NCBI GenBank assembly: GCA_964624785.1
Contig: CAZUXR010000001.1
Span: forward strand, 213 to 64,212
Direction: 5' to 3'
Length of the DNA: 64,000 nt
Source: an uncultured Candidatus Saccharibacteria bacterium
Lineage (GTDB): Bacteria; Patescibacteriota; Saccharimonadia; Saccharimonadales; UBA10212
The position numbers and the translations under genes are program-made. The notes below the pieces were generated by a model. That model was not told the origin of the DNA, ran no database searches, and saw only the letters and a list, made by a program, of their open reading frames with translations. Each line of letters opens with the position of its first letter. Position 1 is the first letter of the stretch. Shown in pieces: positions 30,414-55,146 of this stretch.

Positions 30414-30419
30414 CTATGA

Positions 30420-30580
30420 ATAGTTTATCGTTTTTGGTTTATGGTTGATAGTTTTTTTCAAAAATCCGAATCTCCCAGATTATTTCCGGGGTTTAATTCT
30501 GGAAATATGGGTTCTGGCTTCCTGCTTTTTTGCTCTGGACTACCGGCTCTCAGCTACAAGCTAATCCGAACGGTTTTTAT
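30420..30580. repeat. phase-locked heptanucleotide mosaic, copy H
   Basis: About 23 consecutive 7-mers in one register. The blocks are ATAGTTT ATCGTTT TTGGTTT ATGGTTG ATAGTTT, then AAATCCG AATCTCC, then TTCTGGA AATATGG GTTCTGG CTTCCTG, then GCTCTGG ACTACCG GCTCTCA GCTACAA GCTAATC. It overlaps the DUF167 stop. Confidence 0.7.
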
Positions 30581-42398: not shown

Positions 42399-43655
42399 AT
42401 GGATAAAATTAAAACAGTTGCAATTCTTGGCCGGCAGAAGTCGCTGGGACTTGCCGAACTAGAAAGTCTTTATGGCGCGGAGCATGTGCGCTCCTTGGGC
42501 GACAACGCCGCTGTTTTAGATATTCCAGCCACGGAAATGGATTTTAGACGGCTTGGCGGCGCTGTAAAGCTTGCCCAGGTACTGGCCGAACTACCTACCA
42601 CCAACTGGCCGGACATGGTTAAGTTTTTGGGCGATAAAATTCCTGAGCATATTCAATACATGCCAGAAGGCACCTTTACACTTGGGGTAAGTGTTTATGG
42701 AATAGTGGTTAAGCTAGAAACCTTGAACAGAAATTTACTTGGAATCAAAAAAATTATTAAAGCTGCTGGCAAATCAACGCGAATTGTACCTAATAAATCG
42801 CTGGGACTTAACAGCGCCCAAGTCCTGCACAACAAACTCACAACCAAGGGTGGCTGGGAGCTAATATATATTCGCGATGGCGAGCACACCTTGCTGGCAC
42901 AAACTTTATTTATTCAAGATATCGAGGCCTACGCAGCGCGAGATCAAGCCCGTCCAAAACGCGATGCCCGAGTGGGAATGCTACCACCAAAGCTAGCGCA
43001 GATTATGGTCAACCTTGCCAGTGGCAAGGTCGGGTCACCAGTCACTAGTCACCAGTCGACAGTCACCGGACAAACGACTGGCGACCGACCACTAGTGACT
43101 AACAAGCCTTTGGTTTTGCTAGATCCATTTTGTGGCACCGGCGTAATCCTACAAGAAGCGCTATTAATGGGCTATACAGTCTATGGTACGGATGCGGAAC
43201 CGCGAATGATAGATTATACCAAAGCCAATTTAGACTGGCTTGATTTGCGTGGCGCCAGCAAAGAAGGGCGGATTGAACTAGAAGTAGGCGACGCTACAAA
43301 ACATCAATGGGCTCCACCCCCCAATCTTGTAGCCAGCGAAACATACCTAGGCCGGCCGTTCACTTCCCCGCCGCGACCCGAAATTTTAACCCAAAATATC
43401 AGCGACTGCAATGTAATAATTAAAAAGTTCTTGAGCAATATCCACTCGCAATTAGAAAGCGGGACAAGATTATGCCTGGCTGTGCCGGCTTGGCAAGTTC
43501 AGCCCGGGGTATTTAAGCACTTACCTCTTATTGACCAAGTTGGCAATCTGGGATATAATCGACTGAGCTTTGTTCATGTCAAAGATCAGGATTTGATCTA
43601 TTACAGACCAGACCAAATCGTTGGACGTGAACTAATCATATTAGCTAGAGTATAG
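42399..43655 (+). CDS. THUMP-like / UPF0020-type RNA (guanine-N2 or adenine-N6) methyltransferase
   Basis: Motif I LLDPFCGTGVIL preceded by PPKLAQIMVNLA. Start at the ATG at 42399; the upstream ORF extension overlaps the convergent 41294 gene. Confidence 0.7.
   Translation: MDKIKTVAILGRQKSLGLAELESLYGAEHVRSLGDNAAVLDIPATEMDFRRLGGAVKLAQVLAELPTTNWPDMVKFLGDKIPEHIQYMPEGTFTLGVSVYGIVVKLETLNRNLLGIKKIIKAAGKSTRIVPNKSLGLNSAQVLHNKLTTKGGWELIYIRDGEHTLLAQTLFIQDIEAYAARDQARPKRDARVGMLPPKLAQIMVNLASGKVGSPVTSHQSTVTGQTTGDRPLVTNKPLVLLDPFCGTGVILQEALLMGYTVYGTDAEPRMIDYTKANLDWLDLRGASKEGRIELEVGDATKHQWAPPPNLVASETYLGRPFTSPPRPEILTQNISDCNVIIKKFLSNIHSQLESGTRLCLAVPAWQVQPGVFKHLPLIDQVGNLGYNRLSFVHVKDQDLIYYRPDQIVGRELIILARV
43034..43103. 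repeat. in-frame heptanucleotide array inside the methyltransferase gene
   Basis: GTCACCA GTCACTA GTCACCA GTCGACA GTCACCG GACAAAC GACTGGC GACCGAC CACTAGT GACTAAC. It encodes SPVTSHQSTVTGQTTGDRPLVTN just before SAM motif I. Confidence 0.75.
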
Positions 43656-43944: not shown

Positions 43945-43950
43945 AAACTA

Positions 43951-44097
43951 GCTCTAAGCTAAGAGCCCAGAGCTTAGAGCGGGCTTCAAGGTTTATGGTT
44001 TGTAGTTTATGGTTTTTGGGCTAACGCCGAACGCTAGCTTTTTTCATTCTCTATTCTCAATTCTCTAATTCCTGCTCTTAAGCTAAGGACTCTTAGC
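43951..44097. repeat. phase-locked heptanucleotide mosaic, copy A
   Basis: 21 consecutive 7-mers in one register. The blocks are GCTCTAA GCTAAGA GCCCAGA GCTTAGA, then TTATGGT TTGTAGT TTATGGT TTTTGGG, then CTAACGC CGAACGC, then CTCTATT CTCAATT CTCTAAT, then CTTAAGC TAAGGAC TCTTAGC. The first block forms a 10-bp hairpin (43951-43980). Confidence 0.8.
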
Positions 44098-50387: not shown

Positions 50388-50906
50388 TTATATTCTGGGT
50401 AGAGTAACGCCAGTTTTAAGAGACACTTCTTTTGCCCAACTGATCATAATGGCAAGTTTTTGCTCTAGCTCTAAAGATTCTTGAGCTTTAAGATTGGGAT
50501 GTCGTTTTTCTAGAGCAACTATCCGCATATAAATTTCTTTGATATCGCTTTCTACGCCCATCAGGCGATTGTCGATTTTTTCCATCCACTCGGCCATTTC
50601 CTGGTGCCCGCGCTCCAGGCTGGTCATTCGACCTTCCAGGCTTCCCATGCGCCCTTCTATATTTTCCATACGTCCATCAAGACTCTCAAAGCGCTGGTCA
50701 ATCTGCTCAAAACGCTGGTCAATCTGCTCAAAACGCTGGTCGACTTGCTCAAAACGTTTATCCATATTTATAGCCAAAGCACCGATCGATTCGGCAACAC
50801 TTGTAGCGAGATCACTGATCGACTCAGCAATATCGTTCACACTTGCCGTAAGAGTGCTTATCGACTTGGTAATGTCATCCTTATTTGTGCTTCCCGTAGT
50901 TGCCAT
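50388..50906 (-). CDS. coiled-coil protein with tandem 7-aa (21-nt) repeats
   Basis: FEQVDQR FEQIDQR FEQIDQR FESLDGR MENIEGR MGSLEGR MTSLERG. The underlying 21-nt tandem repeats span about 50620-50765. Confidence 0.6.
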   Translation of the reverse strand: MATTGSTNKDDITKSISTLTASVNDIAESISDLATSVAESIGALAINMDKRFEQVDQRFEQIDQRFEQIDQRFESLDGRMENIEGRMGSLEGRMTSLERGHQEMAEWMEKIDNRLMGVESDIKEIYMRIVALEKRHPNLKAQESLELEQKLAIMISWAKEVSLKTGVTLPRI

Positions 50907-51492: not shown

Positions 51493-52575
51493 TTAGATGT
51501 TGTGTTCGAGCCAGGATTCGATTAGGGGGTCTAGGTTGCCGTCTAGGACGGTTTGGGGGTCGGAAGTTTCGTAGCCGGTGCGCAGGTCTTTGACTTGTTT
51601 ATAGGGGTGTAAAACGTAGCTGCGGATCTGATTGCCCCACTCTGCCGATTGATTTGGGCCTTTAAGCTCACTCAACTTTTCGGCGTGCTGTTGCAGTTGC
51701 AAGGCCGCCAAGCGGGAGCGCAAAATCGTCATGGCTGTTTCTTTGTTTTGAACCTGAGAACGCTCGTTTTGAATACTTACCGTTAGGCCGGTTGGAACGT
51801 GCGTTATGCGCACAGCCGAGTCGGTGGTATTTACTGATTGGCCGCCGTGGCCGCCAGCACGATAAACGTCAACTTTAAGATCATTGTCATCAATTTCTAG
51901 CTCGCCAGGTTTGTCGATTTTTGGCATTACCTCTACCTTGGCAAAACTGGTTTGGCGCAGGTTGTCGGAATTATAAGGGCTCAACCGCACCAGGCGGTGC
52001 ACACCGTGCTCGCCCGCTAAACGGCCGTACAAAAAATTACCGCCGGAAAGTTCGAGTACAGCGCTTTTTATCCCGGCTTCTTCTCCAGAAGTTTGAGAAT
52101 CGGTTTGGACTTTTAGCCCGTGCTTTTCGGAGTAGCGAACATACATGCGCAGCAGCATAGCAGCCCAATCCTGAGCATCGGTGCCGCCCGCGCCGGCGTA
52201 AATTCCTAAAATTACATCGTGGTTGTCGTAGGGGCCACTAAAGCGAAGCTCGCGCTTAAGGGACGAGAATTGAGAATTGAGAATTGAGAATTTAGCTTCG
52301 AGTTCGGGCTCTAGGCTGGAATCATTTAGGCTAATTAATTCCGCTAGTTCGCGGGCGTCTTTTTGCAGGTTTTCCCAGGGTTGAATGCGAGAACTAAGCG
52401 CCGATTCTTGCTTACTTATATCCTGAGCCTTAGTGCTATCTTGCCAAAAATCCGGCTCCGCTATAGCAGTTCGCAAACCCGCTAATTCCGACTTTAGTTC
52501 ATCTAATTTTAGCTGAGCAACCGTCTGGGTAATGTCTTTATTAAGCTCACTAGCCCGCCTTTTAAGCTGTTCCAC
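51493..52575 (-). CDS. prfB: peptide chain release factor 2 (uninterrupted ORF, no programmed frameshift)
   Basis: GGQ motif (GGHGGQSVNTTDSAVRITH). The RF2-type recognition loop reads LVRLSPYNS (SPY at the SPF position). Confidence 0.9.
   Translation of the reverse strand: MEQLKRRASELNKDITQTVAQLKLDELKSELAGLRTAIAEPDFWQDSTKAQDISKQESALSSRIQPWENLQKDARELAELISLNDSSLEPELEAKFSILNSQFSSLKRELRFSGPYDNHDVILGIYAGAGGTDAQDWAAMLLRMYVRYSEKHGLKVQTDSQTSGEEAGIKSAVLELSGGNFLYGRLAGEHGVHRLVRLSPYNSDNLRQTSFAKVEVMPKIDKPGELEIDDNDLKVDVYRAGGHGGQSVNTTDSAVRITHVPTGLTVSIQNERSQVQNKETAMTILRSRLAALQLQQHAEKLSELKGPNQSAEWGNQIRSYVLHPYKQVKDLRTGYETSDPQTVLDGNLDPLIESWLEHNI
52265..52292. repeat. four perfect GAGAATT heptamers (AATTCTC on the coding strand) inside prfB
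   Basis: gagaatt occurs 4 times at 52265-52292 and encodes AKFSILNSQFS in RF2 domain 1. The same 7-mer occurs in the intergenic mosaics. Confidence 0.9.
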
Positions 52576-52663: not shown

Positions 52664-52747
52664 GCGTACAGCGGCCAGGGGTTAGCGGACAGGAATTTCG
52701 GATCTGAACGCTAAACGCTATACGCAGTACGCTAGCCGGTTTATATA
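52664..52747. repeat. heptanucleotide mosaic, copy D (partial)
   Basis: GCGTACA GCGGCCA GGGGTTA GCGGACA ... GAACGCT AAACGCT ATACGCA GTACGCT AGCCGGT TTATATA. The AACGCTA block shares about 30 nt with copy B. Confidence 0.65.
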
Positions 52748-53473: not shown

Positions 53474-53645
53474 CTGTCTTTCGCTAGTCTTGCTTGTAGG
53501 GATTTTTGAGGATTTTAACTAAACGCAAAATACACGTTTGATCAAAAAGAACCTCATATCTATTTATAAAAAGTGCTAAAACCCCGATAAACCTCGAAGG
53601 CAATAGCTATATTATAAAACAGCCATCAGCAAAAAGCAAAGATCC

Positions 53646-53799
53646 GGCTTTGAGTTATGGTTTGTAGTTTATGGTTTATGGGCTAACCCTGAACACTAAA
53701 CGCTATCCGCTGTACGCTTTTCTTCATTCTCAATTCCCCATTCTGAATTCTAAATTCCTGGTATTTAAGCTCTGGGCTCTCAGCTCTTAGCTTCCCAGA
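53646..53799. repeat. phase-locked heptanucleotide mosaic, copy B
   Basis: 22 consecutive 7-mers in one register. The blocks are AGTTATG GTTTGTA GTTTATG GTTTATG, then GGCTAAC CCTGAAC ACTAAAC GCTATCC GCTGTAC GCTTTTC, then TTCATTC TCAATTC CCCATTC TGAATTC TAAATTC, then TTAAGCT CTGGGCT CTCAGCT CTTAGCT. It overlaps the last codons of the M16 gene. Confidence 0.8.
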
Positions 53800-55075
53800 G
53801 GGGTTGGATAGTTTCGTTCAGCTTATCCGTCAAAGCGCGAGTTTTACTATCACCCAGCAGCCCTAACCCGCCAATTCCATCACTAAACATGCGCTCCGAT
53901 GCCCGCACAATACGGCTTTTAGTTATGGCTTTAATGCGTTTTGGAATAGCGTCGTAATCGTCGATTACATTATCAAAGTAGTAGCGGCTAGAGTAGCCGG
54001 ACATAATTCCGCCAACAGTCTGGCCACTGCGCTGGTAGCGCCCTAATAGGTACTGCTTTGCGGCCTCTAAATCTTCTTCGCTGATTTCCCCTGCCCGCAC
54101 GCGGTTGACCTCACGGACGATGATTTCAAACAGCGGCAAAGCGTTTTTAGGAATCACCTGCGCGCCAAACCACCATACCGAACTGTCTTTTGTGGTGTCT
54201 AAATTAGAGCTCATGGAATAAACCAGTCCGCGCTCGCGGGCTTCGCCCAAAATACGTGAATTTAGAGTAGCAGTTAGCATAGTGTTGACCAGCCCAAGCG
54301 CGTCCCATTCCGAGTCCGAAAAGCGATGATTAGCAAACGCGTCAATATAAAAATGCGTAGTATTAACAGATGGGCGCGACACAAAAACGGGCTTTGGTGG
54401 AGCACTCGGAAGTTCTGATGGTAACTCAATTCGCTCGCGGCCTTTTGGTAGTCCGATATTTTCTAGCAGTTGTTTGATTTGGCTGGTGCGCCCCCGCAAA
54501 TTACCGGCAATTATAAACCGCATATTGCGGGTAGTGTGGGTGTTTTTGTAATGCTCTACAACATCTTTTAGCTTAACGTTTTTCATTAGTTTTAGGCATT
54601 CGCGGTCGGTCATGGCCAGCAGCCCATAAGCCTGACGAGTCACAGCATGCAAGTGCAAAAAGTGGTTGTTTGCCCGAGCCGCACGCTCGTCTTTCACGTT
54701 ACCAAATTCGGCCTTAAATTCGTCGCGCAAAAAAAGCGGCTTGCTAATTGCGGTAAGCATTAGCTCTAGCACGCGTTGCCACTCAAAGTCGGCGGCTTCG
54801 GCTTCGTAGGTTACATGATATGTGCTGGTGTGTGCATTAGAATACGCACCGTTTTTTTCGAACTCTGCCTGAAACGCCCGCGCTTTTGGATATTGCTTAT
54901 TAGCGCCAAGCAGTACATGTTCCATTAAATGCGGAGCTTCCCATTTGTCTTTTGGTACCAGGTATTCGCCCGCTCTAAAGTTAAATTCATAATCCATAAC
55001 AGTGGCGCCAGGCACATCGATCAAAATACCTTTTGCGCCATTTTTTAGTTCAATCTCGGTTGCGGTGTGCTTCAT
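53780..55075 (-). CDS. M16-family (pitrilysin/insulinase-like) zinc peptidase
   Basis: Inverted zinc motif HLMEH (HxxEH) near the N-terminus. 431 aa with two-lobed M16 architecture. Confidence 0.85.
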   Translation of the reverse strand: MKHTATEIELKNGAKGILIDVPGATVMDYEFNFRAGEYLVPKDKWEAPHLMEHVLLGANKQYPKARAFQAEFEKNGAYSNAHTSTYHVTYEAEAADFEWQRVLELMLTAISKPLFLRDEFKAEFGNVKDERAARANNHFLHLHAVTRQAYGLLAMTDRECLKLMKNVKLKDVVEHYKNTHTTRNMRFIIAGNLRGRTSQIKQLLENIGLPKGRERIELPSELPSAPPKPVFVSRPSVNTTHFYIDAFANHRFSDSEWDALGLVNTMLTATLNSRILGEARERGLVYSMSSNLDTTKDSSVWWFGAQVIPKNALPLFEIIVREVNRVRAGEISEEDLEAAKQYLLGRYQRSGQTVGGIMSGYSSRYYFDNVIDDYDAIPKRIKAITKSRIVRASERMFSDGIGGLGLLGDSKTRALTDKLNETIQPLWEAKS

Positions 55076-55131
55076 GGAATTAGAATCTCGAATTTGGATT
55101 ATGGAATTTGGAATTAAGATTTATCGAATTT
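55076..55131. repeat. heptanucleotide array, copy C (GAATNNN block)
   Basis: GGAATTA GAATCTC GAATTTG GATTATG GAATTTG GAATTAA GATTTAT CGAATTT fills the M16-secA intergenic gap. It is the reverse-complement type of the NNNATTC block of copy B. Confidence 0.75.
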
Positions 55132-55146
55132 TTCAAAATATGTCCT

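Follow-up and report, generated by a model that had tools for sequence, protein, structure and literature searches.

Inverted heptamer arrays in frame within a Trm11-like methyltransferase gene of Saccharibacteria

The locus and its insert

We examined a 64,000-nt stretch of DNA from an uncultured Candidatus Saccharibacteria bacterium (contig CAZUXR010000001.1; hereafter the window), in which a gene for a Trm11-like S-adenosylmethionine (SAM) methyltransferase carries ten in-phase heptamers at 43034–43103. These heptamers lie in frame within 42399–43655 and encode SPVTSHQSTVTGQTTGDRPLVTN, flanked by PPKLAQIMVNLA and LLDPFCGTG. The ten units are not a single array; rather, they are two inverted heptamer arrays, here termed arm 1 and arm 2, set in one 7-nt phase and followed by a small stem-loop, with which the insert comes to ~83–85 nt. 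The features of the locus are as follows.

42399–43655, + strand: Trm11-like SAM methyltransferase of 418 residues (THUMP-type fold plus Rossmann fold), from its open reading frame (ORF), profiles, AlphaFold2 and synteny
43034–43068, + strand: arm 1, units GTCACCA GTCACTA GTCACCA GTCGACA GTCACCG, family GTCnnnA, core A-GTC, from Tandem Repeats Finder (TRF), a lag scan and relatives
43069–43103, + strand: arm 2, units GACAAAC GACTGGC GACCGAC CACTAGT GACTAAC, family GACTnnn, from relatives and folding
43104–43116, + strand: stem-loop AAGCC-TTT-GGTTT, 5 bp including one G-U, a weakened copy of a 7-bp hairpin in relatives
43020–43118, + strand: the whole insert-bearing loop, SGKVGSPVTSHQSTVTGQTTGDRPLVTNKPLVL, between protein helix 197–208 and strand 239–242

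The original prediction, of ten phased heptamers in frame before SAM motif I, is borne out by the sequence, the ORF and a 35-nt sliding scan for identity at fixed lags. At the site 25 of 35 positions are identical at lag 7, against a window-wide mean of 8.95 (sd 2.78), and among lags 2–15 it is lag 7 alone that has any 35-nt stretch in the window reaching at least 26/35; TRF calls only 43034–43067 (period 7, 4.9 copies, 77% matches, score 47). The two arms are able to pair because the core AGTC is the reverse complement of the core GACT; within the window TAGTGAC complements GTCACTA exactly, and TGGCGAC is one base off the complement of GTCACCA. The stop arithmetic of the prediction was right, (GTCACCA)n being open in three frames and (TGGTGAC)n containing TGA; its corollary, that this is the only orientation compatible with an open frame, is refuted by arm 2, which has the reverse-complement core, and by the GACTAAn and GACTAGn units of relatives, which carry TAA and TAG out of frame. 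No other occurrence of GTCACCA was found in the window, and a 19-nt array pattern matched there only at 43034–43066, with no second match (0.01 expected by chance). With the unit confined to this array, its link to the intergenic arrays described below is one of class (period 7) and not of sequence.

The AlphaFold2 model of the host protein, built from an alignment of 70 orthologues (pLDDT 91, pTM 0.90), predicts an N-terminal THUMP-type domain and a class I Rossmann methyltransferase fold with motif I, DPFCGTG, which is invariant in the family. The best Foldseek structures are the archaeal Trm11 entries 6zxw_G and 5e71 (TM-score 0.72–0.76, E 1e-21), so that the overall fold and motif I are those of archaeal and eukaryotic Trm11, the tRNA m2G10 methyltransferase. 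The protein differs from Trm11 in its extra loops, including the array-bearing one, in its profile score and in motif IV. Matches to Pfam UPF0020 and TIGR01177 (tRNA G10 methyltransferase) begin at about residue 239, downstream of the array only, and the latter scores 56.4 bits against a curated cut-off of 316.55. The catalytic (D/N)PP(Y/F) motif IV is absent, with SE(T/V)YLGRP in its place at residues ~310–320 (vaSEvYLG here aligns with vatDPPYG in 5e71), and E314, L317, G318 and R319 are invariant across the family. Because DPPY is replaced and the TIGR01177 cut-off is not reached, we call the gene Trm11-like and assign it no substrate; the automatically assigned name, 'tRNA G10 methylase', may be mistaken on this point. 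Source names point to Saccharibacteria (TM7) as the organism. Relatives keep the gene order LPG-synthase, methyltransferase, rpmA, pyrG, and no relative of the window gene above 58% identity was found in the protein collection searched.

Comparison with 120 orthologues confirms that the array-bearing segment is an insertion. The spacing from NLA to LDPF is 32 residues in the window against 7 in insert-free orthologues, giving ~25 extra residues, and this loop ranges from 7 to 64 residues across the set. Measured from PPKLAQ to DPFCGTG, both markers counted, the distance is 28–30 residues in 11 of the 120 orthologues, 50 in a large clade whose insert ('ICDIPAG') is aperiodic and conserved, 53 in the window gene and the others of its subgroup, and 85 in one protein (P0053). 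More distant homologues have mostly 28–29 residues and the solved archaeal Trm11 sequences align only downstream of the insert, both of which indicate that the short state is ancestral. In the predicted structure the insert forms a loop between helix 197–208 and strand 239–242, preceding strand β1; over residues 211–240 the mean pLDDT by ten-residue blocks is 51, 42 and 65, falling below 50 at 220–234. The loop is thus probably disordered, exposed at the surface and tolerant of insertions.

Conservation in a seven-nucleotide phase

Ten other Saccharibacteria lineages, with ~57% protein identity to the window, form a subgroup whose DNA we compared, giving 11 sequences with the window itself. 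At the same site and with the same length, all ten relatives carry five GTCnnnA units, five GACTnnn units and then a short GC-rich stem-loop. Some have a purer arm 1 than the window, with four perfect GTCAACA units in L162 and four perfect GTCGGCA units in L164. The insertion would have been in doubt had orthologues carried an equal-length peptide lacking DNA periodicity; instead, all seven relatives measured have a lag-7 identity of 0.48–0.65 across the insert segment, against 0.15–0.33 in aperiodic inserts. The array is therefore old, and a recent or passive invasion is not borne out: at least 11 divergent lineages share it with a fixed copy number and a fixed nucleotide core.

What is conserved in the array tracks the 7-nt phase rather than the codon phase. 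Across six genes of equal length, identity at codon positions 1, 2 and 3 is 0.74, 0.83 and 0.40 in the flanks, and 0.69, 0.66 and 0.73 in the array. When the same bases are ordered by heptamer position, identity at positions 1–7 is 1.00, 1.00, 0.57, 0.53, 0.31, 0.64 and 0.85 in arm 1, and 0.55, 1.00, 1.00, 0.76, 0.52, 0.45 and 0.49 in arm 2. The 'ICDIPAG' insert, taken as a control from 13 loci, has an ordinary codon signature (0.64, 0.69 and 0.34) and a flat 7-phase profile. Arm 1 further shows concerted evolution, its variable positions being more alike between units within a genome (0.70) than for one unit between genomes (0.51).

These profiles bear directly on the idea that a peptide repeat is selected for some role in the enzyme, with the DNA periodicity as a by-product. 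The subgroup does have a common peptide pattern, V.S.QS.V...T.D..L.T, and the peptide encoded by an array in prfB (described below) has an amphipathic, heptad-like pattern (L..L...) and lies in a helical domain. The shared residues, however, are what the core nucleotides encode when read in each of the three frames; within the array third codon positions are no less conserved than the first two; a peptide repeat would give a period of 21 nt, not 7; block mean pLDDT values of 42–65 predict a disordered segment; and the loop is missing or unrelated in close relatives. Selection on the peptide is for these reasons a highly improbable source of the pattern.

One demand of the protein is nonetheless visible. 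The triplets TAA, TAG or TGA stand at positions 4–6 of arm-2 units 1–5 in 5, 7, 0, 9 and 3 of the 11 sequences, and unit 3, where they are missing, is the only arm-2 unit whose positions 4–6 form an in-frame codon. Stop-like triplets are thus absent only where they would be read, which indicates that selection filters the array.

The 5+5 unit count is likewise the same in all 11 lineages, and all 11 genes are in frame. Four groups of close proteins, of which three are 90%-identity clusters (11 proteins in all, a small sample), yielded no copy-number variants, and the insert peptides are identical within each group. A simple reason would be that 7 is not divisible by 3, so that gain or loss of a single unit shifts the frame and copy number is locked. 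Unit length is also what would recommend the array as a contingency locus, in which slippage-prone heptamers switch the methyltransferase on and off by frameshifting, a proposal that could further call on the four perfect copies in L162 and L164 and on the known heptanucleotide phase variation of Haemophilus (PMC8262952). Against such switching stand the constant 5+5 count, the identical peptides within close groups, the intact frame of every gene seen and the imperfection of the array in the window (77% matches), and we regard it as having next to no probability. Over longer times the site itself appears less stable: a crude neighbour-joining order, too weak for counting events, interleaves array-bearing, insert-free and other-insert genes, as though the site gains or loses inserts.

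Pairing of the arms

Minimum-free-energy folding pairs arm 1 with arm 2 in all eight subgroup members folded, and the fold of the window sequence is more stable than expected for either strand.

43026–43112, + strand RNA: −32.7 kcal/mol, z −3.9
43026–43112, − strand RNA: −42.9 kcal/mol, z −5.8
43026–43112, + strand DNA: −16.6 kcal/mol, z −3.0

Across the 11 sequences, pairing in the five core helices of 4 bp stands at 88% and drops to 9–39% when the partner is slid, and nine cells are changed on both sides; in some units a C-to-T change in arm 1 is matched by G-to-A in arm 2. The 7-bp hairpin that follows the array (alignment columns 92–108) is 92% paired, a value reached by none of 500 shuffles (69 ± 3.8%), and two-sided changes are seen in five of the seven pairs, in 16 cells in all. 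The minus strand, if anything, pairs better than the sense RNA. Counts of G-U and A-C mismatches (given below) do not discriminate between mRNA, antisense RNA and DNA as the relevant molecule, and template switching without selection is also a possible source of the complementarity.

Such pairing invites the view that the 5+5 array is a functional cis-element, selected either as an RNA or DNA hairpin (for mRNA stability or ribosome pacing) or as a set of 7-bp-spaced AGTC and GACT protein sites. It would account for core tetranucleotides that are kept at all three codon positions although synonymous sites of these lineages are near saturation, for the conserved copy number and architecture, for a covarying second hairpin inside coding sequence and for the significant fold z-scores. 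Plasmid pSM19035 encodes an RHH protein, omega, whose binding sites are direct and inverted arrays of the 7-bp heptad WATCACW, and AGTCACT is similar. Yet many close relatives have no insert (a 7-residue loop) or a quite different one, which makes any function dispensable; other lineages have wholly different units at the site, such as GAGAAT, GAGAACG, AAACAG and CCTCAGC; and the inner positions of the units are mostly unpaired. Nor does Rfam 15 hold a family that matches at its gathering score, the only hits being generic miRNA-precursor hairpins at 20–26 bits against the 58–100 required. A selected cis-element seems to us possible, if rather unlikely.

Heptamer arrays across the window and the lineage

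The window contains eight lag-7 arrays in its 64 kb, six of them within the ~12% of it that is non-coding; units among the eight include GGTTTAT, ATTCTCN, AACGCTA, TGGAATT and GTCACCA. In 627 kb of related Saccharibacteria loci we found 28 lag-7 arrays, against 0–1 for each other lag from 4 to 12, and 21 of the 28, counted from coordinates, lie within the methyltransferase gene. Thirteen of these sit at the site of the present array, where units differ widely between lineages: (nGAGAAT)5 then (nAATTCn)5 in L004, GAGAACG/TTCCTCG in L030, AAACAGn in L012, AGACAAG in L002 and CCTCAGC in L022. The array of L017 is at about the same position in the gene, its flanking marker motifs undetected. The remaining seven fall at two further sites in the gene.

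Arrays at the further sites are in frame, at L030 2330–2382, L093 2301–2349, L164 3847–3886, L163 1484–1525, L161 3463–3507, L108 2254–2294, L011 2575–2654 and L070 2544–2605. One site, at about +200 nt of the gene, has for example CGTCTAC ×5 and ACTACAA ×4; the other, after an AVPAW motif, has CGACATC ×6 and, in L011, a near-perfect GGGGAAC/GTTCCCC palindrome. Some of the second-site arrays apparently entail no change of length.

A second gene of the window has a coding array of its own:

52265–52292, − strand: perfect in-frame (AATTCTC)×4 in prfB (release factor 2, RF2; 51493–52575), encoding FSILNSQFS, called by TRF

Its unit, AATTCTC, is that of the intergenic arrays at 44046 and 53726. 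The segment that holds it is 39 residues long in 119 of 120 RF2 orthologues, an invariance that argues against simple insertion; the array looks to have overwritten coding sequence with length unchanged. At its position many RF2 orthologues read QLSALSSQLSALK, for which (AGCTCTC)n is predicted from the peptide, and in L171 (10277–10322) we found (CTCTCAG)×4.5, encoding QLSALSSQLSAL. With two arrays at one orthologous position of RF2, coding heptamer arrays with lineage-specific units are not limited to a single gene.

Several other repeats were noted along the way. Two composite intergenic elements of ~150–180 nt, at 43945–44096 and 53600–53779, one of them between the convergent rpmA and pyrG, have ends like terminal inverted repeats (TIRs), CTAAGAGC...GCTCTTAAG, around (GGTTTAT)×4, GGGCTAAC..GAACnCTA and (ATTCTCn)×3–4; a hairpin formed by the composite element was considered and is unsupported (fold z −0.75). 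Other intergenic arrays lie at 30419–30454, 52691–52735 and 55073–55132, with GTTTATG-like, AACGCTA/TACGCTA and TGGAATT/GGAATTT units. An ORF at 50388–50906 (− strand) has 21-nt tandem repeats at 50614–50657 and 50685–50756 (3.4 copies, 92% matches, unit CTCAAAACGCTGGTCAATCTG), by eye without heptamer periodicity. In the distant relative L155, (GCCAACT)×4–5 at 282–334 lies on the + strand in a flanking 473-aa ORF, which suggests that coding heptamer arrays reach beyond the close Saccharibacteria clade.

The existence of a dispersed composite element built of heptamer sub-arrays lends some colour to the proposal that a mobile palindromic element, of the miniature inverted-repeat transposable element (MITE), repetitive extragenic palindromic (REP) or Rickettsia palindromic element (RPE) type, landed in frame in a permissive loop. 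The array is hairpin-forming, in frame and, on the structural model, in a surface loop; presence, absence and length vary at the site among relatives; and RPEs are a precedent for in-frame palindromic inserts (PMC10969869). The array has, on the other hand, no second copy in 64 kb, nothing consistent in the way of target-site duplications (TSDs) or terminal repeats was found around 13 heptamer arrays examined, the 11 related copies are orthologous and not dispersed paralogues, and the prfB segment is constant in length. Mobility of this kind is, in our estimation, very unlikely to have placed the array.

The original prediction had supposed that a repeat-generating process that fills intergenic regions also invades genes, with selection filtering the outcome. 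In part this holds, in that the period-7 class is lineage-wide and mostly intergenic and in-frame stops have been purged; no unit, though, is shared between this array and the intergenic ones.

Interpretation and comparison with known systems

The explanation we favour, and think fairly probable, is that the insert is an old in-frame pair of inverted heptamer arrays, kept by homogenisation in the 7-nt register and by the complementarity of its arms, with copy number locked by the reading frame and protein selection limited to the avoidance of stops. Slippage or conversion in the 7-nt register would generate and homogenise the arrays; the mirrored arm would arise, or stay complementary, through intrastrand template switching or selection for pairing; the frame shift that any single-unit change would inflict on a useful gene would hold the count at 5+5; and selection on the protein would do little beyond removing in-frame stops. 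The insert would then be an element at the level of nucleic acid and not a protein module, a coding member of a mostly intergenic Saccharibacteria heptamer class, whose hairpin may or may not have a cellular role.

Several observations weigh against this explanation. Arm 2 lacks concerted evolution (0.47 within genomes against 0.51 between). The inner 3+3 unit positions are just 27–30% paired in the 11-sequence alignment, for which reason we dropped a continuous helix between the arms; the predicted hairpin is instead a string of 4-bp helices, whose thermodynamic stability is marginal in some lineages. The sense strand shows no G-U signature (5 G-U against 13 A-C mismatches), and the covariation comes from 11 sequences only, a setting in which related sequences can beat shuffles without structure. 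No inverted partner of the prfB array is obvious by inspection, so pairing is not a general rule for coding arrays. Finally, neutral homogenisation alone leaves unexplained why four nucleotides of the unit are fixed and three drift.

A bolder proposal is that heptamer arrays in essential genes of Saccharibacteria, at three sites of the methyltransferase and in RF2, are maintained because they function as nucleic acid, and are written and homogenised by a dedicated 7-nt-register process or by a binder of 7-nt-spaced motifs, even to the point of overwriting coding sequence at constant length. We put it forward as speculation that is unlikely to be correct as it stands; if such a writing process or binder did exist, parts of proteins would be dictated by a DNA or RNA repeat code read in three frames.

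Coding sequence is usually shaped by the protein, and here a stretch of a conserved gene follows the logic of a 7-nt repeat, the sole visible protein demand on it being that no stop fall in frame; similar behaviour is seen in RF2 and at three methyltransferase sites across the lineage. Should this prove general, it would offer a natural system for studying how repeat-generating mutation creates protein loops, show how copy number becomes locked when the unit length is not divisible by 3, make it possible to ask whether bacterial heptamer arrays have a role, and serve as a warning for annotation and dN/dS analysis in candidate-phyla-radiation (CPR) genomes.

Among known systems, the nearest are the short tandemly repeated repetitive (STRR) sequences of cyanobacteria, 7-bp repeats that are intergenic, can form hairpins and have no known function (PMC2670836). 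More broadly, heptamers are reported to be the most frequent of the long simple sequence repeats (SSRs) in many bacteria, and slippage of the polymerase has been put forward as their cause (PMC4679880; PMC4692102). Like STRR sequences, the Saccharibacteria arrays are tandem 7-nt units, typically in 3–6 copies and mainly intergenic, with several units per genome and many arrays; some STRR sequences form hairpins from inverted arrays, as arms 1 and 2 can here. The present array differs in lying in a member of the Saccharibacteria and in frame within a housekeeping gene, and in being orthologous, with copy number conserved across divergent species and conservation in a 7-nt phase within coding sequence. 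The strain-to-strain copy-number variation expected of a slippage-prone SSR was not seen in the 11 lineages and four close-protein groups, again a small sample. Some unit sequences may also be alike: (GTCAACA)n of L162 (3615–3642) is equivalent to (CAACAGT)n, which we take to be a Calothrix STRR unit, and arm-1 units of L162, L166, L169 and L170, such as (GTCAACA)n and GTTAACA, have a CAGT core like that of these presumed STRR units. The TAACTGA repeat of Beggiatoa and cyanobacteria has a CAGT core in its reverse complement, and its reverse-orientation translation, LSVISYQ, resembles the peptide xSVxSxQ encoded here.

The array shares other traits with RPEs and intragenic MITEs, which are palindromic DNA in frame in unrelated metabolic or housekeeping genes and vary in presence among orthologues; in Rickettsia the peptide that the in-frame elements add fits the protein fold (PMC10969869), as the added loop does here. 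The window insert is likewise an in-frame palindrome at a site predicted to be surface-exposed. RPEs, however, are dispersed families of ~150 bp, their many copies nearly identical and their peptide conserved, whereas the present array is ~83 nt long, has internal 7-nt periodicity, and in the 64-kb window has no dispersed copy and no TIR or TSD; the prfB array and, apparently, the second-site arrays of the methyltransferase furthermore involve no change in length. With contingency loci such as Neisseria opa (CTCTT) and the tetra- and heptanucleotide loci of Haemophilus, the array has in common a unit that is not a multiple of 3, in or beside a gene. It departs from them in having no copy-number variation at the depths sampled, in being imperfect in the window, in its mid-gene position and in its inverted arm, and no frame-switching length polymorphism was found among the 11 genes or the clusters of close proteins.

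The papers we read place heptamer repeats chiefly between genes and describe them as scarce in coding sequence, and our literature search found no conserved coding heptamer array of this kind and no paper on heptamers of Saccharibacteria. Its traits are individually familiar, some from STRR sequences and some from RPEs; what is new is that a heptamer array within the coding sequence of another phylum is orthologous, with both its copy number and its 7-nt phase conserved.

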